A stretch of 58,122 bases of DNA, the filler included, from Jimgerdemannia flammicorona (taxonomy: Eukaryota): NCBI GenBank assembly GCA_003990765.1. It is 3 parts of 3 records of this genome, joined end to end, with 100 filler letters (N's around TTAATTAATTAA, not from the genome) between each part and the next. Parts side by side here need not be neighbours in the genome. Positions count along the whole stretch, not along the records: positions 19,410 to 38,716 come from RBNJ01001973.1; 2 more parts are not named here. One strand, given 5' to 3'. Positions 5,310 to 48,489 of this stretch are shown here, in pieces. The translations under genes were made by a program, and so were the position numbers. A model generated the notes under the pieces. That model was not told the DNA's origin. It worked only from the letters and a program-made list of their open reading frames with translations, and made no database searches. Every line of letters begins with the position of its first letter. Position 1 is the first letter of the stretch.

Positions 5310-6600
5310 ATTTACCCAGTATTTTATATATTTCAACTTCAGTCATATACTTCAAATATCTTTAAAGAAAGAACTATACTATCTCTAGATTTAGTAATTA
5401 TTGATCAGCAACTAGAATATAAAGTATATGACATCTTGGATTACAAGGATTGCTAATTTGAATAAGCTACTAAGTCTACCTAATACTATCTTATAAAATG
5501 GAAAAAATATCCCAAGTATAATACTATCTAGAAAAAGGAAGACAATCTTTTACCAAATACAGAAGAAGTAGTAATCTAATATAGATATCTAGTATAATAA
5601 AATTCTGATAGAATTTTCAAAAGACAGTTATATCTCTAAATAACTCTAGTGAAGAAAAGTATAAATATCCAAAAAAAATTCTATATAGATAATCTACTCC
5701 CCCCAATATAAGTATCTAGTAATAATACTGAGAATAAGTTAAGAACAAAATGCTACTACTATCTTTAGAGTAATCAAATATTAATAGAACTTTACTGAAC
5801 TACTATTTATTAACATACAAATTACTAGAGACTCTGACCCAAATGAAGCTTAACTATATCTTAGAAGGATCTAATACTTCTAGACTTTTTGCTACTAATA
5901 AAAACTTAAGGAGTACTATGAGATAAGATTCCTCATTTATCAATAAGCTATCCTCAGTACCACTAAACAATGAGCTCATCTTTTCATTGATAACTATACT
6001 TATATAGTTGCTAAAAGACTCTATGTCCTTTTCTGCATTCAACCCCAAGTTCTTAATTATCTCTATAAAGTATCTCTTAAGAATATTGTCAATTTGAGTA
6101 ATTAATAATAGAGCAAAATTGTTTTCAAGTAGTCTAGTATACTGTCCTTCAATTTAATAAGTATCCAGAGTTTAGTACTGAGTCTAATAAGTAGACTCAA
6201 GCAAAGAAGAGAAAAATATAATAAATCATTACATATATCTATAAGCCTCTGAAAATTCCTATAGAAATTCCTATAGAAATTTCTACAGAATTTCTAACTA
6301 GTAGTCATAGTTACTCAAAGTAGTATAGATATATCCAGTATACTATATTTAGTCATAGTCTTCAAATATGTATAAATACTCTTTATATGAGTATATTGTA
6401 ATATTAGCTCTACTTTATCTAAATATAAGAATCAAGTAGTATTCTTATTACAAAATTCTCAGATCTAACTTATTAATAATTCTGAGTCTGATCAACTTAG
6501 AATATAAGTACAATACTTCCACTAGTACAAGAATCTGAAAGTGATACCTGAACTCTGCTATAATAAGTAATTAGAACTTTTTACTTTCTCAAAAACTTAG
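5310..6600 (+). mobile_element. Gypsy 3' relic, family C: integrase C-terminus/chromodomain plus downstream accessory ORF
   Basis: IYPVFYIFQLQ (IHPVFHVSQL), EYKVYDILDY and YLIKWKKYPKYNTI*KKE are chromodomain-region remnants. GTATAAATATCC at 5659 precedes KEYYEIRFL...VAKRLYVLFCIQPQVLNYLYKVSLKNIVNLS. Confidence 0.75.
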
Positions 6601-6699
6601 GACTTAGGGCTGATAGTTATCTTTAATTATCTGTAATATATTAATTCTATCAATATATAGTTTTATTATACTAGTTTATGAATATTATCTAGTAAAATG

Positions 6700-7170
6700 A
6701 AAAGATTATTTCAAATATAATACTATTTGAGAAAAAGAAGATATCTTCTATCAAATATAGAAAAAGTAGTAATCTAATATAAATATATAGTATAATAGAA
6801 ATATTATATTTCTAATAAGACAAATATAAAATACTCTTAAACATTATATAAATAACTTACTAATAATATAAATAACTAATAAAAACACTAAGAACAAATT
6901 GAGAATAAGATTGCTATATTATTCTTATAACTATTAAATAGTAATAAATCTCTACTAAATTGTCTTCTATCAATATATAAATTTCTGAAAGTCTGAATCC
7001 AAATGAAGCCTAATAATATCTTGGAAAAATTTAATACTTTCAAGCTTTCTACTATCAACAAGAACTGAAAGAATATTATGAAATAGAATAAATTATCTAC
7101 TAACAAACTACTCTCAGTAAGGCTAAATAGCTATCTTGCCTTTTTATCAATAACTATATCTATTGTGATA
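6700..7170 (+). mobile_element. Second truncated copy of the family C 3' region
   Basis: Colinear nucleotide similarity to ~5500-6010 (chromodomain end, TATA, start of the accessory ORF). Confidence 0.7.
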
Positions 7171-16520: not shown

Positions 16521-16524
16521 TACT

Positions 16525-17455
16525 ACTCTCATCATTCTGACTGGGTATCAGCTATCCAGATTCTCAGCAACTTCATAGTCTATCACTATGTCTACTCTAT
16601 TTCTATCATTTATGGCCTGTTTGCCTCAGTTGAATGGTCAGTTGTTTGCTCTTCTTTTCTCTCTCTATTTTATCCCCCCTCTCTTCCCTTCCACTCCCCT
16701 TATCCTTTCTGTACTCTCTCTTCTTTCTCTCTTCCAATTCTTATCATACCATTTGATCAAGCTCACTGGGCCATGCAATGTCCTGATGCTGTCCTGTACT
16801 CTTCTCTTTCATGCAATAGACTGTTATCTTTTTCTCAGCACTCTCTTATTGCTCATTTGTGTCTTTCTTCTATTTCTTCACTTATCCATTGCTCTTATTT
16901 TACATTTTCATTACCTTTGAGTACCTCTGGCTCTACCAGAGAAGATTAAAAAACATCCTGGCCCCCTCCAGAGTCTTATGCTCACTCTAGGGTCTTGGTC
17001 TTCACTCTGCTCCTCTCTACTACCTTTGGCCCCTTGGCTTTACCTCAGGCTCACTGTGGGTTACTCTGCTTGATCTCACCCCTCACTTCTGCTCACTCCT
17101 CCAGAGTCTGTAGATGTTTTTTAATCTTGATTTGGATTTATTTGTTTCTGATTTTTATACTTACTCTGAGATTGGCTCTCCTCTTATCTTTATATAACAT
17201 GAGGTTCTTAATTCAGTTATCTCTATATTATAGTATATTATTCCTTTTTAGGACTTTGTATTTATATATAAGGACTGTTCTTTTGCATAGTAATAAATAA
17301 TAGATATATTTTCTTCTCTGTTCTTTGTCTATCATCTTTCTTATATATATTTCAACTACTCTTTATCTTCTTCTTTGACTATGGCTCAGGCTTTGGCCCT
17401 CTCATCAGTCCTTTCAGCTCTCTCCTGGCTCTCATTATACTCCCTCTTACATACT
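16525..17455 (-). repeat. Second copy of the 12895-13830 segment
   Basis: Colinear direct repeat whose differences are mostly C/T and G/A transitions. Confidence 0.85.
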
Positions 17456-17459
17456 ACTT

Positions 17460-18211
17460 CTACTGAATTATATTCTGTTAATATATGAATCTCTAGAGAC
17501 TCAGATCTAAATAAAGCCCAATAATATCTTGAAAAAATTTAATATTTTCAGGTTTTTTGCTACTAATAAGAATTAAAGGAGTACTATAAGATAGAATACC
17601 TTATCTGTCAATAAGCTACTCTCAGTACTGCTAAATAACAAGTCTACCTTTTTATTAATAATTATATCTAAATAGTTGCCAAAAGACTCTATGTTTTTTC
17701 TGTACTCAATCCTAAGTTCTTGACCTCCTCTATAATGTATTCCTCAAGAATATTATTAGTTTGAGTAATGAACAATAGAGTGATATTGTTTTTTAAGTAG
17801 TTCAGTATACTGCCCTTCAGTTTAATAAGTATCTAGAGTTTAGTGCTAAGTCTAATGAGTAGGCTCTGGTAAAGAAGAGAAGAATATAATAAATTATTAT
17901 ATACTTATAAGCCTCTGGAAATTCTGTATGAAAATTTCTATAGAAATTTCTACTAGTAGTCATAGTTACTCAAAATAGTATATATATATATATATTCAGT
18001 ATATTATATTTAGTCATAGCCCCAAATATATATAAATACTCTCTATACTAAGTATATTGTAATCTCAGCTCTACATTTTCTAAATATAAGAATAAAGTAG
18101 TATTCTTATTACAGAATCTTCAGACCTAACTTTTTAATAATTCTGAGCCTAATTAACTTAAGATATAAGTATAGCTTCCATCAGTACAAGAATCTAAAAG
18201 TGATATCTAGA
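17460..18211 (+). mobile_element. Third copy of the family C 3' region (accessory ORF relic)
   Basis: Colinear with ~5790-6555; encodes KEYYKIEYL...VAKRLYV. Confidence 0.8.
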
Positions 18212-25700: not shown

Positions 25701-27023
25701 TATCTCCCTGGCAGGCTGAGTATTGATTCTGAATATCTACTGGTTCCCTAAGCTGTGGTATATTGCCTATTACTTGGACTTTCCAGCTTGGATGGTGAAG
25801 AGACTAATGAGGCTGGCTAGGGATTAAATTTGGGCTAAGAGGTGGTCCCAGATCAGTTGGGATACCCTTTCAATACCAGTAGTTCAAGGAGGGCTAGGAC
25901 TGGTGGATTTTCCTAAGAGGCTGCACTGCCTGAGAGCTTGGTGGTTGAAGCAGGCTGTAGAACTGAGGGGAGGGGGATGGGTGCTGCTGATGCAGAAGGT
26001 GTGAGAGATGAGATTCTCTCTAAGAGGGTCCTGGGAGGATTTGCTATCCCTGGTAGGCCTGGGTGGAAGCTATTGGCTACAGTATAAAGGCTTCTAGTGG
26101 GGGGGGTAGCAGATAGAGCACATCACATAGGCTTGTACTGGTATAGTAATAAAGGAGAGATGCTGTGGAGACCAGTTATGTAGAGATGGGACAGACTGCT
26201 TTTAGGGGGCACTCTACTTATTGAGTTTAATATTAGTGATAGAGTAGAGTATCAGTGGAGACTTGGTCAGAATCTTTGACCTAATAGTTGGCAAGTAGTG
26301 GAGATTGACAAGGAGTGGGATTGGGCAGGAGTCTGGGCATGGAGTGCTGAGGTGCAAAGATGGCTTTCTCCCAAGTACTGGATAGTATGGTGGAGGATGC
26401 TAAGGAGAAATGTCATATTGAATTTCCATGCTAGGCATCTGGTGGATGGTGGCCTACTAGAATGTGAAGAGTGCTACAATGTAGAACAAGTTGGGAGATT
26501 TGTGCAGATACCAGAACATTGGCTGTGAGAGTATGAGGTTCTGGGGGACTTTTGGATAGTGGTAGGGGACTAGCTGGGTGTGAAGAGGTGACCAGATGGA
26601 GAGAGAGATTGCTGGGAAGATTTGAGAACTAGGTTGGTATGAGGGGTGAGCAATGAATGGCTCACTGTAGGGTGGGATTTAGCTGTATGGGTAGGGCTGA
26701 CTAGATATTGGCTCTTTGTTTTTGAGAAGGGGCAATAGCTGAGTTTGCAGGAGAGGTTGTTAAGATGGGAGGGATTGATGGAAGATATACTGACAGAGTG
26801 GTAAGTTGGATGGGATCTCCAGGGTGGGCATTGCTATTGTCTGGTGAAAGAGATTTGTAAACAGAGTGGCAGGCAGGTGGAGGTAATTAATAATCTAGTG
26901 ATCTTTAATCAAGAGAGTGTGGGGGGGCCTCTAGGGAGATTGGATAGGGGTGGGCTCAGTGTATTATATATGGAATAGACAGATGTATTAATAAAGAAAG
27001 GAGTCCAAGAGACTATAAAAAAA
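22720..27023 (+). mobile_element. L1/Tx1-like LINE (ORF1 tail, full ORF2 pseudogene, 3' end)
   Basis: APE motifs DDFN, RID, WSDY. RT motifs QQGFIEGR, LDQKKAYDHV, RGVPQGDPLSP, AFADD, YLGI and GGLGL. C-terminal CEEC...EH. AATAAA at ~26990 and a short A tail at ~27016. Confidence 0.93.
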
Positions 27024-29938
27024 GATATGGGGTAGATTGAAAGAAGGAGCTAGAGATGGACTGGTTGTGGGCTCTGTTTACCTTCCAGTAGTTGGCAGAG
27101 AGCAAAACCAATGGGTAGAGGGCTGGCTGGCTTGGGGAGACCAAGAGGAGATTGGGCTGGACATTCTGCAGGGAGACTTTAATATAGTGCATGACAGGAC
27201 ATTGGATAGGTCCAATGGTGGAGTTGGAGTGGCTGTCTCAGCAGAGCTTTCACATTGGCTTCAGGTTGTGAGAGATATGAGATTGGTTGATGGTATCAGG
27301 TAGTATCAGAGGGAGAAGCTGGGGTACTTCACTAAGTGGCACCCAATTGGTGAAGATCTGGTGGGAATAAGGATTGATTGGATTCTGGTAGTAGAATGTT
27401 GGAGCAATATACTGAACATAGTGGAGGTATAGTAGTGTCTTTTTTTTTTTATAGTAGGTATAGTAGTGTCCTTGGTCAGATCACTGGAAGTATAGATGTA
27501 TGGAAGATTTCAGGCAGTTGATAGGGGTAGAGGTTACTGGCAATTTAATGTGGCTCTACTCAGAAGGCAGATAGAGTAGGAATAATTTGTGGCAATTGTA
27601 TGGCAGAAAGTGATACAGTGGAAGGATGATAGATAGCCAATAGAGTAGTAGTGGGATAAATTTAAACATTTGGCAGGTGCCTATTGGTATAATATTGGAG
27701 AAGTAGCTGGAATAGAGCAGAAGGATAAAGAGAGGAGAGTCAAGTGAGAGCTATGATGGTAGTTGAGGTTGTTGGAAGGAGAGAACTTATCAGAAGAGAG
27801 ATGCTTCCAGTTGGCCATAGAGATGACTGAGTTGAAGTTGGATCTAAAGGTAGCTGAGAATAGGGTGGTAGATGGTCTGCTGGTGAGGCCTATAGGCAAG
27901 GTGGTTGGAAGAAAGAGAGTGGCCTATCAAATATTTATCAAGTATATTGAAGGCTAGGAGGATGTGATACAGCTGGGTTTCAGTGCTGTGAGAGGATGGT
28001 ATTGAGGTTACTGAAATTTCTGATATGCTTAGAGAGGTCTCTGAACAATGGCAAGCTCTCTGGCAGAATGAAAGAGAGCTTATGGGGGGAGAGATCTTAC
28101 AGGAGGATAATGATAATTTGGTTAGCAGTTGACCAGTGGTAGCAGTACCCAAGATAGGTGGGGCTATGATGGATATAGTGGTTCTTGAAGAGGTGTAAGA
28201 GGTGCTGAGGAATGTGCAGGCTGGTTTATCACCTGGGGAAGATACACAAGCTACCTTGGGAATTCTGAAAGGAGTTCTGGGTTGAGTTTGGAAGATGGTT
28301 GGTAGAAATGGTAAACTTTGTTCTAAGAGAAGGCTGCTAGATTGGTAATAGTTTCTTAGGATTGGTCTCTCTACTGTATAAGGAGAAAGAGAATTAGTCT
28401 ATAGTGGAACTAGTGACCTATCATGTTACTGAATGTGGACAGGAAGTTGGTATCAAAAATTCTAGCTGGGAGAATGTAGCAGTGGATTGGCCAATTGGTA
28501 GGTGAGGACCAGTGAGGCTTCATAAAGGAGAGGCAAATTAGAGACAGTACTACTTGGGTGCAGAATATCTTAGAGGGCTGTAGGAGTTGGTGAGTTGATG
28601 GGTAGATGGTCTTCTTGGATCAAGAAAAAACATATAACAGGGTTTAGTGGAACTATTTGGAGGCAGTATTGCAGAAGGTAGGGTTTAGTGTAGTGGATGC
28701 TTGAAGATTGATAGGCCTGGTGCAAGGCTGCCAAGTAGTGGTACTGATGAATAGGTGGTGTGGCCCAGAGTTTGTCTTAGAAAGAGGTGTGCTACAGGGG
28801 GATCCTCTTTCTCCCCTGCTTTATATTTTATCCTTAGAGCCTTTGTTGGCTTGGCTGAAGGGGTAATTGACTGGATTACATATAGGAGATGTGGTCTGGA
28901 AGTTGGGAGGCTTTTGCTGATAATATAGTGGTTAGACTAGATTGTATGGAGGATATGGAAAGACTGTAGGAAGGGATTGGACAGTATGAGAGGCTGGCAG
29001 GAGTAAAGTTAAATTGGGGCAAGTGTGAGACGATGGAGCTTAGAGCTGGTTTGGAGGAGAATGGGCATTTTGGACAAATGGTGGCCATAGGAGAAGTAGT
29101 TCAATATTTGAGTATCTGGTTTTCAGTGTATGGGACAGTGCTGCCAAAGGAGTGGTGGTGTGGTATGATACAGAAGTGGGAGGGTGCTTTGATGGATTAG
29201 TCAGAGAGGAGTTTCTCCTTGGGGGAAAGAGTTGTAGTTTTGAATGTATACTGATTGCCTAAGTTGTAATATTTGAGATACCATCTGGATTTTTCAGGAT
29301 AAATAGTGTAGAGGCTGAAGAAGGTGGTGGAAGAATGGCTGTGGCAAGGAAGGTGGCTGCAGATTAGTTGGGAGATAGTGGTGCTGTAGATAGGAGATAG
29401 AGGTCAGGGGCTGGTGGACTTCAGGAGACAGTTGAAGATATTCTGGGGTTGGTGGGATTGTTGATTAGCTGAACTAGGAGTGGATGGTTTGGGCAGACTG
29501 GCTATAGACAATTGGGAGGTCAGATTCTGTCCCTGTAGTGAGGCTTGGAAGAATATATGAGATTTTCTTCAGGTGGGAAGAGTCAGCAGATTGCAGTATA
29601 ATGGGTTCTGGTGAAGCATTGTAGAGGTCTGGCTGGCAATGGGATTAAAAGGACTGGAGCTAGGAGAGGAGGAGAATCCAGAGCAGAGATGGTGGTGACT
29701 AGAGAACCTTTGTATTGGTGGGTACTAGCTAGCAGAGTACTCTCTATCTGAGGCAATGGAATGGATCAGGATAGGCCCACTTGAGAGGTGGCCAGTGGGT
29801 TGGCAGAAGGCTGGGTTCAGTAAAGATTGGGAGTGGAGTCAGGTCTAGAGTTGGGGGGCTTTCTTGCTCAAGGCTATACTGCTTAAGTATTGGGTTGTGT
29901 GGTGGCAATTCTTGAGAAAGAATGTGATGCTGGACTAC
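27024..29938 (+). mobile_element. L1/Tx1-like LINE ORF2 pseudogene (same family as 19909-22715), interrupted by the Gypsy element
   Basis: VGSVYLP, GDFN, RIDW, WSDH, LDQEKTY, GVLQGDPLSP, FADN, YLSI; many stops. Confidence 0.92.
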
Positions 29939-30731
29939 TGTAATAGAGCAAACAGATGGGACACAATGAACGACGAGCGATCACGTGACCCAGCGATGAT
30001 GTCATCATATGATCAAGCATGGCATATAAATAATGATACAAATGAATAATGCTGAAAATGATATTTAACTTATCCCTGACAACTGGTGCTGCAGCAACAG
30101 TTACCACAGCTGCTGATCATTGCCTAGTAATTGAGGTCCTGATCATAAATATATTCTTTACCAAAAACCACCTGACAAAGGTCGCGATCACAAACCTCAT
30201 TATAGTTACCAAATTAGTCACTCATACTTAGTCAGAAATTACAGACCAACTTGTATAAATACCTCCCAGTTTCTATCCGAAATAAAGCAGTTTTAGTTCA
30301 GTCCTTGATACAAGAATCAAGTCCCCCCCACACACACACATTCCCCTGAGTCTTAGTAATGACACCTAAGTGACTCTAGTGTTTCTGACTAAACTCCAGA
30401 AGTCTAGCTAACTTCTGCCAGAACTGAGACCGATATATAAATCACAAAGACTTAAGTAAACCCATTGAACCTGAATTCCAAGACGAATTCAGTCTGTGCA
30501 CAGCAAAGAACAAGACCCTCAAAATAGGGCACAAGAGAAAGATCTTTGAAAGATAAGATACATAAGAGAAAGACCTTTGAAAGATAAGGCACTGCCACTA
30601 CAACTACTTAAAGTGAGCACTTCCTCAACTGAAGGCTTCTTGGTACACATTGTGTACTAAGTCCCTAAGTAATAGTCCACTTCCCTAATTATTCAAAGGA
30701 TAAGAGAGGGGTAGAAGTGAGAGTTATTACA
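29939..30731 (+). repeat. 5' LTR (793 bp)
   Basis: TGTAAT...ATTACA termini; TATA at ~30253 and AATAAA at ~30281; matches 38293-39302. Confidence 0.97.
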
Positions 30732-30734
30732 ACT

Positions 30735-30748
30735 TGGTAGCAGCGGAT
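30735..30748 (+). promoter_or_regulatory. Primer binding site, initiator tRNA-Met-like
   Basis: TGGTAGCAGCGGAT after a 3-nt spacer downstream of the LTR; close to the complement of eukaryotic tRNAiMet 3' ends. Confidence 0.85.
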
Positions 30749-30829
30749 TACCAGCCAAGAAGGCACCAAAGAACACACTCCTGAAGTTGGAACAAGACCA
30801 ACCTTGGACAGGAGTAACCCCCAGAAACA

Positions 30830-33800
30830 ACTGTGAATCCTCAAACTAGAGCCAGAGAAGCCCTTGCCATTAGGACCAGGTGGTACCAGGAAACCACAGA
30901 TACAGAGACCCACCAGCTTATAATTGACCAGGCTTACAAGGATCTATACTAGGTCTTTAGGACATACCACCCAGGACTTAGGAATATTGTCAGCTGCCAT
31001 AGGTTCTACGAACTCCTCCGAGGATACATTGGAACCACTAGGACCCCAGAGTCTACTGCTATAGCCACCCAGGATTTTTTAGATTATATCTCACCCCCTG
31101 CTGCAAAAGAAGCAGCTGCCGAGTAGATTACCTCTGACAGATATCATCATACCCCAACCAAGACCTCCCTCTACTATAGACTAGTTGTATACTATGCCTC
31201 TGCCATAACTAGGTATGAGAACGAGTAAGCAGGCCACCCATCCCCTACTGCTGAACAAGGAGCAGGTCCATCTACCCAGCCAGAGACTGATATCCTCTTT
31301 GAAGGACCTAGTCAGTATGAGGACGTGCTATCTCATCAGGGAAGGGAGTCAGATGAAGACTCTACAGGTTACCAGTCTGACAATAGCCAACAAGGAACAG
31401 TAGGCCTAGGAATTTACCAAGGAACCACAGGTCAAGAAGATCAGACCCCAGAACCAACCCAGCCACCTATACAGAGATTTGGTTTACCCTCTCTCACAGG
31501 ACTCTTTGACTTAATATCCAGAAATCAAGTAACCCCAAGTCATACAGCACCACAACCCCACTAAGCAGAACAATCTTCAGGAGAATCTACCCCAACAGGC
31601 CCACCACCACTAGTCAATATAATGGTAGATGTCAATATTGCAGCACTAACTACCCAGCTAGCAGCACTAGCAGGGATAGTAGGAGAAATTGCTGAACAGA
31701 ACAAATCAACCAAGACCTTGTGAATCCCAACATTCAGTGGAAAAAACAGCGACATTAAAAACTTCATCAATGCAGTTGACATAGGCTACCGAGCAAACCA
31801 ATGGAATGACAACTGAGTACCTATAGGAATGCTTGCCAATAACCAGAACAGTACCCTCCAACAACTGTTTGCCACATCAGCAGCACAAGTAGAAACAGTA
31901 GCCACATTCTTCACTAGAACAGCAGCCAAATTCTGGCGAACCTTGGAACAACACCCAGTAACCTGAGAAGCCCACCCTCAAGTCAATGGACAAGTATCTG
32001 GCATCAATAGACCAGGTTGGGATGACTACGAAGCAGGCCCAGAACTCAAGGCCTTGCTACTGACCAAATTCCGAAATGTGGCCTACATATAAGAAACTTG
32101 GAACAAACTGTCCCACAAGAATGGCGAAGAAGATCTAGAGACCTTTGCCACCAGAATAGATGCCTATCTCAAAACTGTTGGACTTACTTACCAGGAGAAC
32201 AATTTGGCCATCAATGGTACCAGAGCCAACCATCTCTTTGCAGCCCTACCAGACTGGCTCACCCAGAAGATCAAGGAACAAGGTCTTCCCCAAGGATGTC
32301 CCCACTACTCATGGTGCTTTGCTCAAGTACAAAGAAGAGCCCGCAAAATCCTTGCTGCATAAGCTCCATGAAATCAAGAACACAAGAAGGATAGCCAAGA
32401 CAGGAGAAATTCCACCAGAAGAAATGATCAAAGGAATGATCAAAGATATGTATGATCAAAGGTATGATCAAAGGAACCAGTGAAATCCCAGAGGACCCAG
32501 ACCTCCCACTGAGGATGAGAAGAAGCAGCTCCATGAAAAAGGATTGTGCTTCATCTGCAAGAAGGCAGGACACATCTCAGTCAAATGTTCTGAGAAGAGA
32601 AACAGATCAGGTGAACCCAGTAACCAGAACATTACTGTCATCGGAGAAGGTCCAGGAAAGAAGAACCCTGAGAATGTCATCAAAGTACAGAAGATATGGT
32701 ACAAGGCTACTATCCCCACTAAGGCCCACCCAACTGATGCTGGTTATGACCTCTACAGCAGTCAAGACCTCACTATTCCACCAAGTACCAATGCTACAGT
32801 GTGAACAGGAATTGCAATGCAAGCTCCCAGAGGCACATACATCCGCCTTGCCAAGCGAAGCAGCCTAGCCAAAGAGTTCAACATTGGGCTAGAAGGAGGA
32901 GTAGTTGACCAAGGGTTTACTGGAGAAATCCATATCATCTTGCGAAATTTTGGAGACACATCATTTGAAGTCAAAACAGGCCAAAGGATTGCCCAAGCAA
33001 TCATTGAAGAAATCTATCAAGATCTCACCATTGAAGAAGTCCCCAAACTCTCCCAGACAGACTGCAGCAAGAAAGGGTTTGGATCAACCAACAAACCTCC
33101 CAGTCAGAAGGTCACTACTATGGAGGAAGATGATGAAAACTGGTACAAGAGAATTGCAGATGGTTATGCACCATGTGGACGATGCCCTCATTCTATTCGA
33201 ATGTACTGCATGGAATATATTAGTGAATGCCATACATGCCTCTTCAAGGTTTTCAAAATCAACTCTGAAAGAAACCAAGCTCCACAGACTGAGGAACCCA
33301 AACAAGACAACCCTCCTTGTGAAGAATGGGGAGAAACTGACTTCGAGGAGACTGACAGCAATTGGGACAACAATGAGAATGATGAGCTCAACACCATCAA
33401 GAAGGAGGACAGTTGCATCAAGTTCACAGGCCAAATCCACAGACAGAATATCAATGTCTTGCTTGATAGTGGTGATACTGGAAGCTACATCAGCACTAAG
33501 ACCACCAAGAGGATTGGAGCCCAAAGCAGACCAACTACTGAGAAAAGAAGTATTACCTTTGGTGATGGAAAGACTGCGCCATTGACTAAGATCTGTGAAG
33601 ATCTATTGCTCAAGATTGGCAAATATCAAGAGAAGTTGGACTTCAGCATTGTAGATCTTCCAGGACAGGACATCATCCTAGGAAAAGCCTGGTTGACCCA
33701 GCACAACCCAGATATCAACTGGAGGACCAATGAGGTTAACCTGACCCACGAAGGCAGAAAGATCACCCTGACACCCCAGGAAGATACCAACCACCAGGGA

Positions 33801-36800
33801 ATTGAAATCATCTCTGCCATTCAAATGAAGAGACTCTCTCAAAAAAAGGGAAACACCTACTTCATCTGTACAGTACAAGAAGTCACTGAAGCTACAAGTA
33901 GCCCAATTCCAACAGAAGCTCAAGAACTGTTTGAAGAATTCCAAGATGTATTCTAAGACCCCCAAGGACTTCCACCCAAGTGCCAAATCCAACATGGAAT
34001 TGATCTTATTCCAGGATCTAAACCCCCATACAAGAGTATCTACCAACTGGCCCAACCTGAGCTCAAGACCCTCAAGGATGAATTGACCAAACTACTGGCC
34101 CAAGGATACATTGAACCCAGCCACTCTCCATTTGGAGCCCCCATTCTATTTGTCAAGAAGAAAGATGGCTCTCTGCGAATATGTATTGACTACAGAGCTC
34201 TCAACAAGATCACTATCAAGAACCAGTATGCCTTACCTAGGATTGATGAGTTGCTACACCAAATCTTCAAGGCCAAGACCTTTTCCCTACTGGATTTGCG
34301 AAATGGCTACCACCAGATTCTCATTGATGAGAAGGACATTGAAAAGACAGCTTTCTGAACATGGTTTGGATACTACCAGTTTCGAGTCATGCCTTTTGGA
34401 TTGACCAATGCACCAGCAACATTCCAGTATCTGATGAATGACATCTTTGGACCACTCCTCAACATCTGTGTCCTTGTGTATATCGATGATATACTAATCT
34501 ACAGTGAGACAGTAGAGTTACACTACACCCACCTCAGACAAGTACTGACCCTCCTGCGAGAACACCAGCTCTATGCCAAGATGAGCAAGTGTAAGTTCTA
34601 TCAAGACCAGATTGAGTACTTAGGACACATCATCTCTGCTGAAGGTATCAATGTGGACCCCCGAAAGGTATCAGCTCTCAAGGATATCCCTATCCCTACT
34701 ACCCTCAAGCTACTCCAGCACTTTCTGGGTATTGCCAGTTATTACCAAAGGTTTATCCAAGGATACTCTGCTATTGTAGCCCCACTGACCAGCCTGGCCC
34801 ACAAAGGAGTGAACATCAAAGCTGAATGGACCCCCGAATGCACCCTGGCTATAGACCATCTCAAGAGACTTCTTACTGAGGCCCCAGTGCTGATTGCACC
34901 TGACCCTACCAGACCATTCACCCTGACCACAGATGTCTCTGATATTGCTATTGGAGCAGTACTCAGCCAAGAAGACTGCCCAGTGGCCTACCTTTCCCAG
35001 AAGCTCAAGCTAGCTGAGACCCGATATACCACCCATGAGAAGGAACTCTTGGCTATTGTCACTGCACTCCAGGAATGGTGCCATTTCCTCCTAGGACAGC
35101 CATTTATGGCCTACACTGATCACCATACACTGTGGTATATTCACACACAGCCTATGCTGACCCACAGACAAGCCTGCTAGATGAAAATCATTGCCAATTT
35201 TGATATGGAAATCAAGTATATCTCAGGCAAAACCAACTGTGTGGCTGATGGTTTCTCCAGGTACATGGAAGATGAACTTGTCTTCATAGTCGAGGTAATT
35301 GGAGATCTCACCCAGATGATCAAGGAAGGCTACCAGCAAGACAGCCCCCTGACGAAATTCCTTCAATTCTGCCAAGACCCAGAGGCCGAGGTTCCAGAAC
35401 CCATGAGGCAAATGGCCAAGAGATTCACTTACCATAATGGACTTATCTACAGAGACCATAACAGAGTAGTTGTACCCAACAATGATACTCTGTGACTCAA
35501 GATCATGCAGGAACTCCATGATACTCCTGCAGCAGGACACTTTGGTTTTGAAAAGACCTACAACCTCCTCTCAAGAGAGTTCTATTGGCCAAAGATGACC
35601 AAGGATATCAAAGACTTTGTGGCCTCATGCGAGATGTGCCAAAGGTTCAAAAGTGGTAACAAGCTACCAGCAGGACTCCTGCAACCCTTGCCTATCCCGA
35701 GTCACAATTGAGATCAGATTGCAATAGACTTCATTGTCCAACTCCCCAAGACCAAGGCAGGATGGGATGCCATTGTGGTATTCGTGGACCACCTAAGTAA
35801 ACAAGCCCATTTTGCACCAACCAAGACCACCACTACAGCACCAGAGATTGCTGAGATCTTTCTCAACCAAGTATTCAGGCTATATGGCATGCCTAGCACT
35901 ATTGTATCTGACTGAGATACCAAGTTCACAAGCAACTTCTGGAAGGCATTTTTCTCCCTCCATGGAACCAAGCTGAAGTTCTCTACTGCCTACCACCCTC
36001 AGACTGATGGTCAAACTGAACAAACCAACAGGACTCTCAAACAGATGCTTAGCATCTTCTGCTGTTACAAACAAAATGATTGGGACAAGTACCTAGCCCA
36101 CACCAAGTTTGCCTACAATAATAGTCAGCAAACCTCTACAAAGAAGACCCCATTCTTCCTGAACCACAGTCAACACCCAAGGACCCCAAGTACCACTGCG
36201 AAATCAGCAGTCCCAGCAGCCCAAGATCTGGCCGAGACTATTTCTGACCTTACCCAAATGACAAGAGATACTCTCATAGAAGCACAAGACTATCAGACCA
36301 AGTATGTGAACTTGAAGCAAAGAGAAGCCTCCTATAATATTGGTGACATGGTCATTCTTAGAACAGACCACCTCCACCCAGATACCCTAGCACAACAACC
36401 AGCCAAGAAACTCCGTGCTAGAAGAATTGGACCATACAAGATCATGGAAAAAATCAGCGAAGTCAACTACAAGTTGCAACTTCTCCACAATATCCAAGTA
36501 CACTCAGTATTCCATATTAGCCAATTGGTGGACTACCATGAAAACCCATTCCCCAAGCATACAGTTCCACCACTACCCCCAATTAGGATCAATGATCATG
36601 AGGAATTCGAAATTGAGGAAGTACTTGACCACAAGGTCCACAAATATCCCAAAACAGTCAAGCGGTTTTTCCTGATCAAGTGGAAGGGTTACCCCACCCA
36701 TGATGCCACCTGGGAAAAAGAAGAAGCCCTGAAGAATGCACGCAAAGCCCTTCAGGACTACATGAAAACACTCACTCCCCAGCAAAGGAAGGAACTACAG

Positions 36801-36806
36801 CTCTAA
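30830..36806 (+). pseudogene. Gag-dUTPase-Pol polyprotein pseudogene
   Basis: N-terminal extension, Gag core from 31622 (IPTFSG), knuckle CFICKKAGHISVKC, dUTPase, PR LLDSG, RT YIDD, RH TTDVSD, IN HDTPAAGH..CEMC plus DDE core, GPY motif, chromodomain FLIKWKGY..DATWE. One frameshift at ~32450; the internal stops are consistent with C>T/G>A transitions. Confidence 0.95.
32679..33089 (+). pseudogene. dut: Trimeric dUTPase domain within the polyprotein
   Basis: Motifs AGYDL, RSSL, GVVDQGFTGEI, GQRIAQ and KGFGST; one probable CGA>TGA stop at 32802. Confidence 0.95.
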
Positions 36807-37377
36807 GTATTGGAGTGCATAGTGAGCAGAAGGATATTATATATTTTATCCAGAAATATATAATACTGAACATTGTGAAAAAAGGAACACTATGGATACC
36901 CAATAAGAAGATACCTGAGCAAAAGAACAATCTAGTACAGTATAGCAAAATGCATTTGAACAACTCCATTTCATACCATCTGTGTCATCTCTGCTGGATG
37001 ATGACGGATACTTCATATAGAACTTAGGAAAACCAACAATGTCGAAACCAGTCTAAGCCCATCCACATGACAGATATTGTTACTAGAAATTACCTCGGAT
37101 TATAAGAAAAGTCTATTTCTGAGAGGTTCAAACCCCCAGCTGCGACAATGGGAGCCCTCACCCTAGACAAGGATGGCCAGTCCTCGCAAATGTGCCAACC
37201 AGACAAAAAAAAAGTGGACCAAGACCTGTTAACTCTGTGTAACCACAACTACAAGTGACGAGAGCTTTGAAATCAGGATTTTCTCATGTGACCAGTATAT
37301 GCCCCGCTTACAGCAACAGGTCATACATTTTGCCAGAAAGCATGACCACAGGAAGGTCACATCAGATGGGTGAATAA

Positions 37378-37389
37378 GTATAAATACCC
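37378..37389 (+). promoter_or_regulatory. Putative internal TATA promoter for the accessory ORF
   Basis: GTATAAATACCC, identical to the LTR TATA context at ~38607, about 70 nt upstream of ATG 37451. Confidence 0.65.
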
Positions 37390-37450
37390 TAGGCAAGAAT
37401 ACCCTACAACTCTCATCCCCCTCTCCTCACAAAGAAAGGACAAGATAAGA

Positions 37451-38281
37451 ATGCCTGCCACCCACCGCCAAACTGCCCACCATAGCTAGCCCCCCCCTCT
37501 CAAGCCAGGTTGACCGCCTCTTTGGACACATCTAGGTTGCTATCCAAGGAAGGAACCACCACTCAGAGGCCCTTAACCTCTCTAGCCCAGACCTAGGACA
37601 GTATATCCTTGACCACTGTGAACTTATCGAAAGAACCTACCTTGCTACCAGCCACCTAGAAATCTGGCACAAATATGAAATCGGTCACCAGCTCCTCTAA
37701 TATACAAATGGCCTACCCACAGACCAGGTCTCTGACTGGACTCACCTAGACAGGCACGAGCAAAGACTTGCCAAGAAGGTCCATCAAATCATGCGCCATG
37801 CCCCCTTCGCGATCCCCAACCTCAACTACATACAACTAAAGGACTTCCAGAACCTCTCTTTCCCTGAGGTTGATGTCTAGAAGTCAAGGTCACCCAAGAA
37901 GCCAACTCCTGGATTGCCCTCAAGTCTACTGACATCGAGTCTCACTGGAGCCCCCTCCTGAATGACAACTCTGACCAATGGCTCCAAGGCCTCTCTGACC
38001 TCTTTGAAGGACCACCCATCCGAATGGATATCCCCAGGCATGAGGACCAAGAACCCTACTTGGATGGCCCCAACTGCATCCGATGGAGAACTCCTACACC
38101 AGCACCTATCTTAATGCAAGAACCATTTGCAGACCTCATTGACTTCTCTGTCCTGGACAGCGAGCCACCAGTAACCACCCCCCCTGCCCCTGAAGAAGAT
38201 GATAACAACCCTGAGAAGAATTCCCCACCTTTCTCTCCCCTGGTTCTCAATTTTTCAATCAATGAGGATGTTGATTTCTAA
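37451..38281 (+). pseudogene. Uncharacterised accessory protein (ORF3, ~276 codons)
   Basis: MPATH...DRLFGHI...WHKYEIGHQL...LAKKVHQIMRHAPFAIPNLNYIQLKDFQNLSF...FADLIDFS...PLVLNF. Two compensating frameshifts (C run at 37490; ~37877). Full-length homology to 46080-46907. Confidence 0.85.
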
Positions 38282-38292
38282 GGGGGGAAGAA
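38280..38292 (+). promoter_or_regulatory. Polypurine tract
   Basis: AAGGGGGGAAGAA directly before the TGTAAT of the 3' LTR. Confidence 0.92.
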
Positions 38293-39302
38293 TGTAATAG
38301 AGCGAACAGATGGGACGCAATGAACGATGAGCGATCACATGACCCGGTGATGATGTCATCATATGATCGAGTGCGGCATATGAATAATGATGCAAACAAA
38401 TGACGCGGAAAATGATATTTAGCTTATCCCTGACAACCGGCGCTGCAGCAACAGTTGCCACAGCTGCTGATCATTGCCTAGTAATTGAGGTCCTGATCAC
38501 AAAGATATTCTTTACCAAAAACCACCTGACAAAGGTTGTGATTACAAATCTCATTATAGTTACCAAATTAGTTACTCATACTTAGTCAGAAATCGCAGAC
38601 CAACTTGTATAAATACCCCCCAGTTTCCATCTGAAATAAAGCAGTTTTAGTTCAGTCCTTGATACAAGAATCAAGTCCCCCCCACACACACACATTTCCC
38701 TGAGTCTTAGTTTTTTNNNNNNNNNNNNNNNNNNNNNNNNNNNNNNNNNNNNNNNNNNNNTTAATTAATTAANNNNNNNNNNNNNNNNNNNNNNNNNNNN
38801 NNNNNNNNNNNNNNNNACCAACTTGTATAAATACCCCCTAGTTTCCATCCGAAATAAAGCAGTTTTAGTTCAGTCCTTGATACAAGAATCAAGTCCCCCC
38901 CACACACACACATTCCCCTGAGTCTTAGTAATGACATCTAAGTGACTCTAGTGTTTCTGACTAAACTCCAGAAGCCTAGCTAACTTCTGCCAGAACTGAG
39001 ACCGGTATATAAATCCCCAAAGACTTAAGTAAACCCATTGAACCTGAATACCAAGGCGAATTCAGTCTGTGCACAGCAAAGAACAAGACCCTTGAAATAG
39101 GGCACAAGAGAAAGACCTTTGAAACAGAAGGCAAACCAGAAAGACCTTTGAAAGATAAGGCACTGCCACTACAACTTCTTTAAGCGAGCGCTTCCTCAAC
39201 TGAAGGCTTCTTGGTACACATTGTGTACTAAGTCCCTAAGTAATAGTCCACTTCCCTAATTATCCTAAAGATAAGAGAGGGATAGAAGTGAGAGTTATTA
39301 CA
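38293..39302 (+). repeat. 3' LTR (split by the spacer, probably two different copies)
   Basis: Matches the 5' LTR; about 110 bp is repeated on both sides of the spacer, with substitutions. Confidence 0.9.
38717..38816. other. Assembly spacer (44 N + TTAATTAATTAA + 44 N)
   Basis: Same construct as 19310-19409. Confidence 0.97.
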
Positions 39303-42517: not shown

Positions 42518-44155
42518 GTATTCAGAAGTTCTGTTTGTTCAGATTGTTCAAGTCTGAGTTTCTGAGGTCTGGGGGAGGGAATATTTATACTAATGAGAGG
42601 CTATCTAGACTATGTATGCTAAATATGGATGTAGTACTTAGTATCTTACTGAGTCAGAATGCAGTCATGTAGTACAAGTGGGAACTGATATGTCAAGAGA
42701 TTGTCTGACTGATAAGTCAGTATATGGTTATATTATATAAGACTAATTTAACTGTACTAATGACTATTAAGCTATCTATAGATTTAGATACTATCTGAGT
42801 AGTCTTTGATGATATTACTATTGATGACATTATCTCTGATGAAGTAGTTATCTAAGAAGAGTAGTTCTTGAATTACTTCTCCCTATTTGCTCAGGTAATA
42901 ATACATTGGAATCATATCACTATTCTACAGAATAGTATTATCTGTTTCATATATTGGATATAGAGTTGGTAGGTGAAGGAGAAATACATCATCTTTACTT
43001 TCATTGGATTCACTATCTGTGTATCTTCTATAGGTTACAGTACTATGTATTACTAGGTTGTAGTAAGCTGGCAGCTATTCTTTATATCACTTATACTTAG
43101 GTAGTAAAGTTGTTAGTTTGATCTCAAGGGTTATCTGAAGGTACAGGTTGTATTCTCTGATCTCTTCATTGTAGTTAAAGTAGTCAGGTGTAAATGTGGA
43201 TTAGTACTTATACTAGTGGTCATTATCTCAATAGGTCTCATAGATGATTATGAACTGTTGTAAGTTTATCAGCAAGATTGGTAGGGTGATCTAGGCTAGT
43301 AGAGATCCTTAGCTGAAGGTTCTATCAGTGTCAGAGGGATTGTTATCTTCTGCTTCATTATTATTGAACTGGATTATATTATAGATATTCTTTATGGTAT
43401 ATCCAACTTGAGATATTTACAGAATGTGATCATTGAGATGCAGAAAGGTTCTATCTATGATTTGGATATATTTGATATACTTGTGGTTGAGTTCTTATAT
43501 CATATTATCGATTTGGCCATAGGACAGAGTGACAATCATTTCCACAGTAGTAACTCAGAGGTGGGGAATAAAGGTGCTATATGTATTTATTAAAGAGCTC
43601 TTGGTGCTTATGGGCAATGAGTTTCTGGTGTTGAGACATCTGAGTAATGTCTGTATTATAGTGGTGTTCAACTATATCTTCTAGAAGATGGCTGATATAG
43701 TAGTAGCTTGAGATTTGTCTAATTCAGTAGGCTTCACTGAGTATGTTCAGAGCATTCTATTAGACTTTCACAAAGTAGAGAGATATTAGACTATAGATAT
43801 TTATAAGGAGCAGGAGAGGTATAACTCATTTGATAATAGTATTCCAAATGTCAGCATGGATGTGGTTGTAGATCTCAGTAGTTGTAGTTGTATATACATA
43901 TGTTCAAGAGTTGTGGTTATTTGTTTGATTTGTTTGGTTCTCTATTTTGATATATCTGAGTACTTGGTATATATATATTTGGTCCTAATTAGTAAGATTC
44001 TATTTATGTAAATCTTGTGTTCTGTGACTTTTATTTGACTCAGCTTTGTACTCTATGACTTCAGTTTGACTTAGCTTTATGATCTTATATATAATTTTCA
44101 GATTTGTTCTGAAGGTGATATGTGATTTCAGTGGCTTAGAGGTTGTGTACTTATA
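42513..44155 (-). repeat. Long 3' LTR of family B (at least 1.6 kb, truncated at the poly(A))
   Basis: Starts TATAAG (decayed TGTAAG) just after PPT AAGAAGGGGAGAG (44157-44169) and the GGATGTC pre-PPT motif. TATA motifs at ~43800 and ~42585. Confidence 0.72.
43300..43755 (-). pseudogene. Accessory ORF3 homolog inside the family B LTR (3' end undefined)
   Basis: SYYYISHLL...LIAHKHQELF...(frameshift)IPHL*VTTVEMIVTLSYGQID, downstream of TATAAATATC. Confidence 0.65.
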
Positions 44156-46079
44156 ACTCTCCCCTTCTTAGCTTTTGACATCCTTGTTGAGGTCTTATAA
44201 TTTGGTCTAGTGTTGTTATATCATTTGGATGATCAAAAGTCTAGTAATATCCATTTTTCTCAGAAAGTGGTATACTTGTAATATAGTTGCCTAATGTATT
44301 AGATTTATATATTAAAGGGTCATATATTTGATATGTATCATATACTGGAAGTGATTCTGATGTCATTCACTGCTAAAGAATTTTCTCTAAGAAATCTTCT
44401 TAAATATCTATACCTTATTTCTCACCAGTGGTATGGGGAGAATAGGCTGGCTTTCAGTTTTGTTATTTTTCTAGAGAGTTGGTATTCTTTTGTCTTATCT
44501 TGCTGAGTTCTTGATTTGTTCATAATAATTATAAGAGTACTTAATGTTTGGAAGGTGTAGTATATAGTATAGACTGACAGATATTAGAGTGTTCAGGTTT
44601 CAGTTGTTCAAAGAATCATATTCTTGAACTAGATTAGTAGTATTCTAGAGGTTGGTCTTGGGTTTCCATGTTGTATCATAGATTTAACCTTTTCATTTAA
44701 CAAGGTATTCTGGATGATTCTTGTGGCTATATTTGTTGAGGATTTGTTCAACTTTATATTCTCCTTGGTCATTAATAATAATAGGTACAGATGGGTTTGC
44801 ATTTTGGTTCAAGAATAGCCTATCATCATTTTTATTACATTACTTGAGATATTGGATATTGAAGACTGAGTGAATCTTAATGGTATCTGGTAGTATCAAT
44901 TTATAGGAAGTTAGAGAGACTTATATAATAACTTTGAATAGTCTAATGAATTTACTATTCAGCTTCATAAATAGTCTGTACTTAAGGTTATCAACTCAGT
45001 ATTCTTGGATATCTAGTAGAACTTTTTCTCTAATGTCAAAAGTTTCTTCTCAGCAGTACTGGTTAATATACTGTGACTGTTGTTCTTGAGCTCAGGATAA
45101 ATTCTCAATTGCAATCTAACTTAAATTATATATTTGGAGCACAAATTCTTCAATAGCTGGATTCATCAGTAGTTCTGATAAGTATCAGAGGGGTGTTTGG
45201 GTTTTGTTCTGTATTGGTAAAAAATGGGGTCATTCTAATAGAGGCTTACTTGCTGTTATTGTAGGTAAACTCAACTGTAGTAAAGTATTCATGCCAATTA
45301 TCTTGCCTATAGAAAACATAGTTCTTTAGCATTTATTCTAGAGTTTGGTTCATCATTTTAGTTTAACTGTCATTTTAAAGTAAAAAGCTATAGATAGCAA
45401 GTTTTGTTCCAAGATATACATATAGGGCTTTCTAAAAGTAGCTGGTGAATTTTGGGTCTTGATTACTAATAATGATCTTGAGAAGACCATGATAGTAGAA
45501 GATGTTGTTAAACAAGAGTGTAGCTCTGTCTAGTGCTGTTGCAGTAGTAATAGTTAGTACTAAATAGGCTTGTTTGCTGAGATAGTCTACAAAGATAACA
45601 ATTGCATCTTTTCCATTCTTAGTTCAGGGTAGTTGTATAATAAAGTCTATAGAGATTTATTCCTAATTGGCAGATAGTACAGAGATAGAGTGAAGTAGGT
45701 CAGGTTTTGCTAGGATTGAGGACTTATTGTATTGGTAGATATTACAGAAGGAAATATAGATCTTTAGCTAATCAGTCATATAAGGCCAATAGAAGTTTTG
45801 GAAAATAGCTTCATAGTATTTATCAAATTCTAAATATTGTAATGGTGACCCCAGAATGATGACATCAGTACAGAAGACAGCCTTTCCTTGTAAGCCACCA
45901 GATTGGAGCACAAGAAGATTATACGGCATATGAGATGAATAATAATAACCAACTGTGAGTCATTGTGATCACGGTACAAGCATCCTGAAGAATATAAAAG
46001 AAGGATCAAGGAACTGCAGTAGCAGCAACCAATAAGAACCACCAATCCCAAAATAGCTCAAAGACTTACTACAAATGAA

Positions 46080-46907
46080 ATACCTGCTGCCCACCAAACC
46101 TCAAGGTCAAGGAACCACCAAGGCACCTTGGTTGAAGAAAGGATGTTCTAAGACATCAGAAGAGCCATGGAGACCTGCTCAAGAAGGACTCCCAGTATCT
46201 ACCTGGGTACTGCAGACCCTTATCACTTCATTCTCTACCGCCGTGAAATGGAAACAAGGATCACTATTGCTACCGAATGCCTCCAAATGTGGCAGGAGTA
46301 TGAAATAGGAAACCTCCTCTGCCAGGAGTTCTCACAGGCCAGCACCCAAGAGCTACAAGATGCTACTCCCATGGACATACGTGAAACAAGGACAGCTAAG
46401 AAGATCCATTAGATCTTCAGACATGTACCATGGTCAATCCCCAACTTGGAGTATGTTAGAGTCTCAGATTTCAGAGACCTGTCATTCCACCATATCAATG
46501 CACTAGAAGCCAGGGTGGCTACAGAAGCCCAGTCCACTATCACCCTCAATAGTGAAGAAGTAGAAGACTTCTAGTACCCTATCCTCCAGGACAACCCAGA
46601 TCAATTCCTGCAAGGATTTATCTCAGTATTCCAAGGCCCAAGCATCTAGGTTAGACCTCTCCAAGACCCCACATTTATTCCCTATTTTGTGGAAGAAAAC
46701 CTCATAGACTGGAGAGCTCCAGATCTTATTCCCAATTTCCCCACCACAGCCGAACGTGATGACGTCATCGATGATGTCATCCTGTGCGACATACCCGAAG
46801 CATGTGAAGTATGTGAAATGCGTAACCTGCATGACGAATTCGCGGATCTCATCTCCTTCAGTGATGATGATGATAAAGCCCCCATGATCCTGAACTTTCT
46901 GCTCTAA
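46080..46907 (+). pseudogene. Uncharacterised accessory protein (ORF3, 275 codons) within the LTR
   Basis: Single frame with no frameshifts; start ATA (from ATG) and four transition-type stops. (M)PAAH...ERMF*DI...WQEYEIGNLL...TAKKIH*IFRHVPWSIPNLEYVRVSDFRDLSF...FADLISFS...PMILNF. Confidence 0.88.
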
Positions 46908-46917
46908 GTTCTTTGTT

Positions 46918-47041
46918 ACACTGGATAATGCCAACACTGGTATTCTCATATAACACTGGATAATGCCAGCACTGGTATTCTGAGGTGATGCAAAATTGTT
47001 CCAGCACCTGCATTTTGATGTGACACTGGATAATGCCAGCA
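46918..47041 (+). repeat. Triple direct repeat ACACTGGATAATGCCA(G/A)CA in U3
   Basis: Copies at 46918, 46954 and 47023, upstream of the main LTR TATA. Confidence 0.85.
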
Positions 47042-48489
47042 TCCTGAATCTGTACAACCATCAGTACTGACCCTGGAACTTAGTAGTTTTAGTTATTGGA
47101 GTTTATATTTAGCTTTATATCTTAGCAACCATTGAATTATATTTTGTATAAATATCCCTCTTATTTCCTCTGAAATAAAGTCAGTTCTTCTCAGTACAAT
47201 ACATTCAATTCCTTGCAAGCAATCTAAGAGATAACAAGACAGTTAAAGATAAGAAGTTTGAGGACTATAAGACTTTGGGAAGGCACTCCAATAAGAACTT
47301 GCTTATAACAAACTTGAGTTAGTCTAAGAGATATACCTTGAAGAGAATCTGGTGTATTTGAAGAACTCAGTGACCACTACATGACAATATCTAGCTATAG
47401 GGACATCATGACTTTAAATAGGATAGTCCTTCAGAGATCTCAATTGCTAAGAATATACAATCTGTCCTTATAGTAGATAGCATTGTTCTTCAGTTGATAT
47501 TGATGATACTGGGAGTGCTTGTCAATATTATCACTGCTCAGGATTTCTCAGAGTACTTGGACTTCATTATCATAAGTGTATGCTACAATAATTTATTCTA
47601 TGATAGAGTTGGTAACCAAGGTGAGGGTTTGAATAACCTCTTCAATTGGTGGTCTAGAAATTACATTAGTAAAGATATTCTCCTTGTCAGAATAATACTA
47701 GATTTCATAGTTAATGTAACAGTTCTAGTTTCTTTAGAAGTTCTAATTGACCTAAAGTAGCTTAAAGAGATACTTAAAGGTTCAAGTGTTCTTGAAGGAT
47801 TTCTGGGAGAAAATATTCTGAGCTTTATTTAGACAGAGAACAAGGATATTTATACATAATTTAAAAGAAGATCTGGAATGATCTTAGAAAGAAAGAAAAA
47901 TACCAAGAAATAGGTTCTCAGCAAAGCTGACTAATACTATTCTACAATGTTCCAAAAGGTTCTATGACTATCTAAGACAAGACACTTACATAGTACTAAG
48001 AAAGGACAAGAATGTTCTAGTGGTGTCTGGGTACTGAGAGAAGGTTTCTAAGTAAGTAGAAGGTGGCAGAACATAGTAGAATGTTCAAGAAATGACAAGA
48101 AAAGAATAACTAAAAGATGCAAAAATATACTAAAACTAAATATGACTGTGAAATTGTTACATCTTTCTCTCCTTAAGAACCAATATCCTCATTGAGTTCT
48201 TAGGTAATATAAGACTAGATATACTTAACCAAAATTTCTCAAACTTGTATTAGCATATTAGTGGAATTGGTCATCCTCATATAGGACAGAGGGCCTATTA
48301 CCAGACTAACCAACTGGGAGGGGTTCGAACCCAGCTAGTAGCTTCATTTCAGTGGACTTCTTGTTCATTAAATGTTCTGCTAGTTCCAGGGTCCCAAAGT
48401 AAACTTCCAATACATAAGACACTGGTCATTGCCATAGGTCATTGACAATCCAAGAAAGTCACTATAGGGGTTGAGTAATGTATTTTATC

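Follow-up and report, generated by a model that had tools for sequence, protein, structure and literature searches.

The stretch of DNA analyzed here (the window) comprises 58,122 nucleotides (nt), filler included, of the Jimgerdemannia flammicorona genome (assembly GCA_003990765.1) and consists of three parts joined end to end. It holds a retrotransposon with an additional open reading frame (ORF), here called ORF3, between its pol gene and its 3′ long terminal repeat (LTR). This retrotransposon (element 1; see Table 1) is a single element spanning 29939-39302, whose LTRs are direct repeats of 90-96% identity with TG...CA ends. Its polyprotein contains a CCHC knuckle, dUTPase, protease (PR), reverse transcriptase (RT), RNase H (RH), integrase (IN), an SH3_Tf2-1 domain and a chromodomain (Pfam E-values of 4.6e-17 for dUTPase, 9.3e-10 for RVP_2, 6e-18 for SH3_Tf2-1 and 9.5e-13 for Chromo), and RT, RH and IN domains are likewise present in its pol relatives. 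Element 1 thus combines LTRs, a primer binding site, a polypurine tract (PPT) and the order PR-RT-RH-IN with a chromodomain at the integrase C-terminus, and this domain set makes it a chromovirus. The dUTPase (32544-33100) sits between the CCHC knuckle and the protease.

ORF3 copy 1 of element 1 starts with an ATG at 37451 and ends with a TAA (38279-38281) that overlaps the purine run AAGGGGGGAAGAA, directly after which the LTR begins with TGTAATA at 38293. A first-pass annotation of the same DNA had described a frame of about 276 codons with its stop overlapping the PPT, and this description holds with a count of 277. Two frameshifts, near 37490 and 37873, leave the start and the end in the same frame and place about 37485-37871 in another. 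Both fall where other copies of the element, seen in contigs of four public runs, differ in length. Copy 1 is dead because of its in-frame stops. In each of the four public runs (two labelled soil metagenome and two labelled with a coded organism), all 30 bins of 31000-38700 are covered by copies with a likeness of 85% or more; copy variation in these runs was read from contigs. The 3′ LTR is interrupted by a gap (38718-38817) of N runs around a TTAATTAATTAA linker, across which the segment 38599-38711 recurs at 38817-38929, so that the apparent length of this LTR is an artefact of assembly.

A second full copy of ORF3 (copy 2) had been proposed at 46080-46907, and tblastn with two halves of copy 1 recovers it (46137-46487, E 2.5e-23, 37% identity over 117 amino acids [aa]; 46503-46733, E 4.8e-12, 40% over 77 aa). 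Besides copy 2, the two halves gave no match below E 1 across the window, and a nhmmer DNA profile of four ORF3 sequences found two good copies only. Copy 2 is followed directly by an LTR of its own, with the LTR core TGTATAAATATCCC / AATAAA near 47140-47180 and no clear purine tract before it. Within this LTR region, 47088-47393 forms an inverted pair, 85% alike, with 3968-4269, which looks like a decayed, isolated fragment of this same LTR.

A third family in the window is AT-rich. A hidden Markov model (HMM) built from 18 family sequences scored a relic of the ORF3 core at 5907-6105 with 16.0 bits, compared with a maximum of 3.3 bits in 500 dinucleotide shuffles. The first-pass annotation had listed homologous peptides at 5750-6240, 6900-7170 and 17460-17930; the first of these stands as this relic, and the DNA alignments place the other two (6681-7158 and 17456-18208 in Table 1) in the same AT-rich family and not in families of their own. 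A further proposed homologue on the minus strand, 43755-43300, was rejected: the same HMM gave it 0.3 bits, within the range of its 500 shuffles (up to 5.8). Comparison of 43200-44620 (-) with the AT-rich family by blastn and tblastx gave nothing below E 0.08, and HMM scores of its pieces were near or below zero. Three families of elements with ORF3 are supported in the window, one fewer than the four divergent families first suggested.

Table 1. Positions of element 1 features and of ORF3 copies and relics in the window
Feature	Position	Strand	Remarks
AT-rich chromovirus family, ORF3 core relic	5907..6105	+	16.0 bits; ~360 nt downstream of chromodomain 5307-5549
AT-rich family, partial DNA copy of 5482-5998	6681..7158	+	68% identity, 520 nt, E 4.7e-45
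AT-rich family, DNA copy of 5789-6549	17456..18208	+	80% identity, 772 nt
Element 1, 5′ LTR	29939..30732	+	direct repeat with 3′ LTR; TG...CA
Element 1, primer binding site, tRNA-type, TGGTAGCAGCGGA	30736-30748		after 5′ LTR; sequence read
Element 1, polyprotein frame	32544..36806	+	several in-frame stops; Pfam matches, translation
Element 1, pol-ORF3 spacer	36807..37450	+	~645 nt; stops in all 3 frames; 13 ATGs
Copy 1, TATA box TATAAATA	37379..37386	+	~72-73 nt upstream of ORF3 ATG
ORF3 copy 1	37451..38281	+	277 codons including stop; two frameshifts, in-frame stops; pseudogene
Element 1, PPT AAGGGGGGAAGAA	38280..38292	+	overlaps ORF3 copy 1 stop codon; same layout in contig L001
Element 1, 3′ LTR	38293..39302	+	TATA at 38608; AATAAA ~26 nt beyond; gap 38718-38817
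Copy 2, TATA box	45993..45999	+	87 nt upstream of ORF3 start
ORF3 copy 2	46080..46907	+	single frame; ATA replaces ATG; 4 in-frame stops

Relatives of ORF3 and constraint on its product

Public environmental proteins contain relatives of ORF3. In a word-indexed search, 6 of 634 candidates matched with copy 2 as the query and 8 of 3404 with a profile. HMMER, run exhaustively against 1.84 billion cluster representatives (E≤0.001), returned nine matches, eight of them true and one an ankyrin-repeat false positive. The true members are 86-342 aa long and none is fused to pol. Public environmental data contain intact relatives of 200-342 aa, in only eight clusters. The 22 listed members of the nine clusters lie on environmental contigs, 540-4848 nt long, in JGI/IMG or ENA and are either called "hypothetical protein" or nameless. 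No named protein of any organism matched ORF3 in the word-indexed, profile or 1.84 billion-representative searches, and the loose likeness to proteins of arbuscular mycorrhizal fungi suggested in the first-pass annotation was not borne out. An alignment search for ORF3 was negative in all 57 candidate stretches from genome contigs and all 34 from viral contigs.

Intact full-length members include P0002 (271 aa, 70% identity to copy 2), P0010 (342 aa, on a 4848-nt contig), and P0021 and P0023 (323 aa); P0001 (247 aa) shares 85% identity with copy 2 and lacks the N-terminal 23 residues. Members share a start MPA and the motifs W-x-x-YEIG, AKK(I/V)HQIFRHAPW-IPNL, SD-x-x-LS, DNPDQ(F/W)LQGL and F(Q/E)GP, followed in the tail by DLIxF and a terminal LNF. 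The peptide strings quoted from the window in the first-pass annotation are all present. Two metagenome contigs, L001 and L002, provide ORF3 DNA. In L001, ORF3 and its stop are followed by the tract AGGAGGGAGGA and then by an LTR start, TGTAATAAG, which is the order seen in copy 1; for the relatives outside the window, the linkage of ORF3 to pol is given by copy 1 only.

Among the best 120 pol relatives of element 1, the closest are environmental contigs at 58% identity, several of which also have dUTPase. The named ones in this set belong to Chara, Closterium, Nannochloris, seed plants and two fishes, the nearest being streptophyte algae and plants, with no fungal name, in a list biased to projects that annotate transposon proteins; the absence of fungal names says little, as such genes are masked in many genome projects.

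Selection on ORF3 was estimated from Nei-Gojobori counts on codon alignments. The ratio of nonsynonymous to synonymous change (dN/dS) was 0.225 for the N half of copy 1 against L001 (pN 0.237, pS 0.612), 0.204 for its C half against L001 (pN 0.227, pS 0.622), 0.209 for copy 2 against L002 (pN 0.286, pS 0.675) and 0.094 for L001 against L002, both intact (pN 0.398, pS 0.750); these values are rough because dS is near saturation. In every compared pair pN is far below pS, and intact frames persist in clusters down to 22-28% identity; ORF3 is therefore a protein-coding gene under constraint. The selection at the protein level claimed in the first-pass annotation is thus upheld by intact homologues and a dN/dS of about 0.2, and we regard ORF3 as very probably a genuine gene of the element.

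The product does not look like an envelope protein. The maximum of the 19-residue Kyte-Doolittle mean lies between 0.46 and 1.05 in all eight members, and their N-termini are not hydrophobic. By hydropathy, none of the eight has the signal peptide or transmembrane segment of an env-like third ORF, as the first-pass annotation had also concluded. The C-terminal third has a net charge of -13 to -27 in all eight. AlphaFold2 models computed with an 18-row alignment reached a mean predicted local distance difference test score (pLDDT) of 67.5 for P0002 and 62.6 for P0010, with the same helix order in both. They contain a confident core at about residues 15-160 (pLDDT mostly 75-95), a helix and hairpin of lower confidence, and a disordered tail below 50. 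Models and charge profile agree with the helical core and acidic tail described earlier. The family also proved as unfamiliar as had been supposed: Pfam gave no family for the three window pieces at E≤1, and the best value for the eight intact homologues was E 0.089, all far under the gathering cut-off. A PDB sequence profile search with ORF3 gave a single match at E 0.2.

Possible signals for a separate ORF3 message

Scanning along the genomic RNA cannot reach ORF3, so the gene needs an mRNA of its own; reinitiation from the genomic RNA is unlikely because of the 13 ATGs in the spacer. Such an mRNA could arise from a promoter inside the element or by splicing. A TATA box (TATAWAW) precedes ORF3 in each of the four lineages for which DNA is available, at -73 in copy 1, -87 in copy 2, -80 in L001 and -65 in L002. 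In shuffled sequences a TATA box fell within -90 to -55 in 0.6-3% of trials per lineage. Because the flanking DNA is only 47% alike between lineages, the box looks conserved. The first-pass annotation had recognized a copy of the LTR TATA motif after the chromodomain stop, and the 11-mer TATAAATACCC at 37379 does recur in the LTR at 38608 and 38826. This extended LTR motif is found upstream of ORF3 in copy 1 only; for copy 2 and L002, the two TATA regions are unlike each other. Three of the four lineages also resemble one another over the 20 nt that directly precede the ATG (AAGACTYACYACAAA).

From these signals we lean, if only slightly, toward a separate internal TATA promoter for ORF3. Located 65-87 nt upstream of the ATG, the box would drive a message of about 1.2 kb that ends at the poly(A) signal of the 3′ LTR. 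Part of the spacer of element 1 can be aligned with the DNA upstream of ORF3 in L001. A spacer block at 37140-37200 is kept between copy 1 and L001 (1-60), reading CCCTA-A-AGGATGGCCA...CAAATG, and might act in cis, either for replication or for the proposed promoter.

Alternatively, ORF3 could be expressed in the manner of retroviral env genes, by a subgenomic mRNA that starts at the LTR promoter and is spliced, with the TATA box being incidental or serving another purpose. In all four DNA sequences the ATG is closely preceded by pyrimidine-rich stretches and AG dinucleotides (in copy 1, a pyrimidine-rich run and then AG at 37410-37440; in the other three lineages, AG dinucleotides before the ATG), which makes a spliced message possible. 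Splicing is documented for some sense additional ORFs (aORFs) such as that of barley Bagy2 (PMC7264820) and for one Oikopleura Tor env class (PMC4402516). A TATA box kept at a fixed distance in all four lineages despite diverged flanks speaks against this route, as do the lack of a conserved acceptor position and, in L002, of any AG within 15 nt upstream of the ATG. We consider splicing possible, on balance unlikely, and prefer the internal promoter as the source of the message.

Candidate roles of the ORF3 product

Overall, we think it reasonably probable that ORF3 is the third gene of a dUTPase-bearing chromovirus clade, with its own message and a regulatory product. It is a sense aORF between pol and the PPT, passed on together with the elements and maintained by purifying selection. 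The predicted product would be a soluble protein of 260-340 aa with (i) a short basic N-terminus, (ii) a helical core of about 150 residues without a recognized fold and (iii), C-terminal to the core, a small beta hairpin followed by a long disordered acidic-hydrophobic tail. Such a protein would most likely have a nuclear regulatory or adaptor role and act in trans on the element's own expression, for instance by transactivation or counter-silencing. The basic N-terminus, the acidic-hydrophobic tail and a weak likeness to ParB, VirB and KorB lead us to infer a nuclear or regulatory role. That the protein is a transactivator in the strict sense seems rather unlikely. Improbable, in our estimate, is the most elaborate version, a complex retrotransposon in which an ORF3 regulator of new fold, made from the internal promoter, binds the element's own DNA and activates or protects the LTR and internal promoters, as a counterpart of the foamy virus Tas/internal-promoter circuit that arose independently, outside vertebrate retroviruses.

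The ParB-type matches come from structure comparison of the models. VirB (3vwb_A) was matched with Z 4.1 (rmsd 7.0, 90 aligned) and with Z 3.8 for the second model, and SopB (3mkw_B, Z 3.7), ParB (1zx4_A, 3.5) and KorB (1r71_A, 2.9) followed, below the chance level for helical models. Atlas scores were 0.83 and 0.89, under the 0.9 lead level, with helix-turn-helix and partition families among those listed below it. A ParB/VirB/KorB-type helical DNA-binding likeness of the modelled core is thus a lead only.

Several findings weigh against the view of ORF3 as a separately expressed regulatory gene of its clade. Foldseek comparison of the ORF3 models with PDB and BFVD gave nothing at E≤0.001, and the best Z-scores of a wide VIA structure search (4.1 for the core, 4.5 for the low-confidence tail) are under the chance level for helical models. 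The dN/dS values carry the roughness noted above, and the pyrimidine-rich runs with AG leave room for splicing. Both full copies in the window are dead. Upstream of copy 2 there is no pol; the minus-strand integrase and chromodomain of another element lie there (45836-44618), and the arrangement at 45836-47400, in which the integrase abuts copy 2, may have arisen by truncation, nested insertion or rearrangement. Another chromovirus on the minus strand (47737-53738; LTRs 47737-48159 and 53341-53738, 88-91% alike) has only about 300 nt from its pol stop to the LTR and therefore lacks ORF3; the gene is thus dispensable for chromoviruses in general. Finally, among the 14 public runs listed for the stretch, no RNA run is on record.

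Among other roles for the product, ORF3 might suppress small-RNA or chromatin-based silencing by the host and not activate transcription directly. The host appears to target the elements of the window strongly, since all of them show heavy CpG-type decay, and an acidic disordered tail with short hydrophobic motifs would suit an adaptor that binds host proteins. The protein resembles no known suppressor, has no recognized domain, and the elements were silenced and decayed anyway. We consider this reading improbable.

The decay itself was characterized in eight segments. All of them have a CpG observed/expected ratio of 0.0-0.23 and a (CpA+TpG)/(ApC+GpT) index of 1.04-1.45. Nine of the 20 C/T differences between the young LTR pair precede G, and copy variation in soil run X1 comprises 560 transitions and 42 transversions. 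Classical repeat-induced point mutation, which is CpA-biased, was rejected on these values as the source of the C>T/G>A stops named in the first-pass annotation: the depletion is of CpG and the index is not of the CpA type. The pattern looks like methylation-linked CpG decay.

A different possibility is that ORF3 restricts its own element. Ty1 p22, a copy-number control factor produced from an internal start, is a piece of Gag. By analogy, ORF3 could encode an inhibitor made from an internal start, and the promoter-like signal inside the element and the small soluble protein would fit; coexistence of host and element could select for such an inhibitor. Unlike p22, ORF3 does not derive visibly from Gag: the family HMM found no second match in the rest of element 1, gag included, and the models have no likeness to a capsid fold in PDB or BFVD. 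We rate this analogy as very unlikely to hold. It is hardly credible that ORF3 is a transduced fragment of a host gene or a chance open frame without a role in the element: gene capture by LTR retrotransposons is documented (PMC7264820) and copy 2 has no pol, yet ORF3 recurs in three diverged window families and eight clusters elsewhere with a dN/dS of about 0.2, its start, end and PPT-adjacent position are always the same, and no named cellular protein was matched in 1.84 billion representatives.

Other window DNA and known counterparts of ORF3

Older elements of the window have decayed to a GC content of 22-35%. Two minus-strand open frames, 12086-12559 and 21917-22684, are 32% identical (E 6e-16), both end in ...MARCL and match no Pfam family; an unclassified repeat that takes up much of 8-30 kb is their probable source. 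Strong strand asymmetry extends over several kb, with a GC skew of -0.43 at 12000-18000 and +0.52 at 24000-30000. A 92-nt unit occurs four times within 10394-10796 in a tandem-like arrangement, with 63-80% likeness between the copies. When 65 stop-free segments from outside the elements (7-30 kb and 39.4-45.9 kb) were compared with Pfam, nothing matched at E≤0.001, and one segment had a sub-threshold match at E 0.006.

Foamy viruses have an internal promoter in env that drives tas/bet. By analogy, ORF3 may be a 3′ accessory gene with its own promoter, and the proposed logic, a trans-acting regulator with an acidic region, is alike. For the protein, no sequence similarity was found in the search of 1.84 billion representatives and no fold similarity in BFVD or PDB at E≤0.001.

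LTR retrotransposons are known to carry sense aORFs between pol and the 3′ LTR (class aORF-3S), and the examples described so far are mostly env-like (Vicient and Casacuberta 2020, PMC7264820). ORF3 falls into this class by its place, after the pol stop at 36806 and before the PPT at 38280, with the same layout in L001 and with an LTR after copy 2, and by its conservation over three window families and eight outside clusters at a dN/dS of about 0.2. Like the class as described (PMC7264820), it keeps the same place and orientation across copies and families and has no cellular homologue; the plant and insect examples there mostly have transmembrane segments, whereas ORF3 has none and matches no described family in Pfam. 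The Boty aORF of Botrytis and Sclerotinia Gypsy elements is also conserved between pol and the 3′ LTR; it is antisense and ORF3 is sense, a comparison made by description only (PMC7264820).

For some fungal chromoviruses, Novikova et al. 2010 (PMC2864245) depicted an "additional ORF with unknown function", and they described dUTPase in several; these chromodomain Gypsy elements, some with dUTPase and an extra ORF, resemble the ORF3 elements as far as the descriptions can be compared. In Oikopleura Tor elements, which are Ty3/Gypsy-like, the third gene (env) is expressed in some classes from an additional promoter inside the element and not from the 5′ LTR (Henriet et al. 2015, PMC4402516). The Tor gene encodes a membrane glycoprotein, and experiments have located its promoter, whereas the ORF3 product is predicted to be soluble and its promoter is deduced from a conserved TATA box (PMC4402516). 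Literature searches returned no description of the ORF3 protein. We therefore class ORF3 as a new family of proteins that belongs to an already known type of feature, with the "additional ORF" of Novikova et al. compared by description only.

LTR retrotransposons are usually held to need gag and pol only, and extra ORFs are recurrent, almost none of them with a known function. ORF3 offers a clean case for study: a compact family under selection, with intact natural members and with both its PPT-adjacent position and a promoter-like signal conserved. The core, modelled with confidence, has no match among solved structures. If ORF3 is truly a trans-acting regulator, regulatory accessory genes, a hallmark of complex retroviruses, would have evolved in retrotransposons too. 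Should it counter host silencing, it would represent a new tool for the conflict between element and host. Either way, ORF3 marks a lineage of chromoviruses that occurs widely in soil data.

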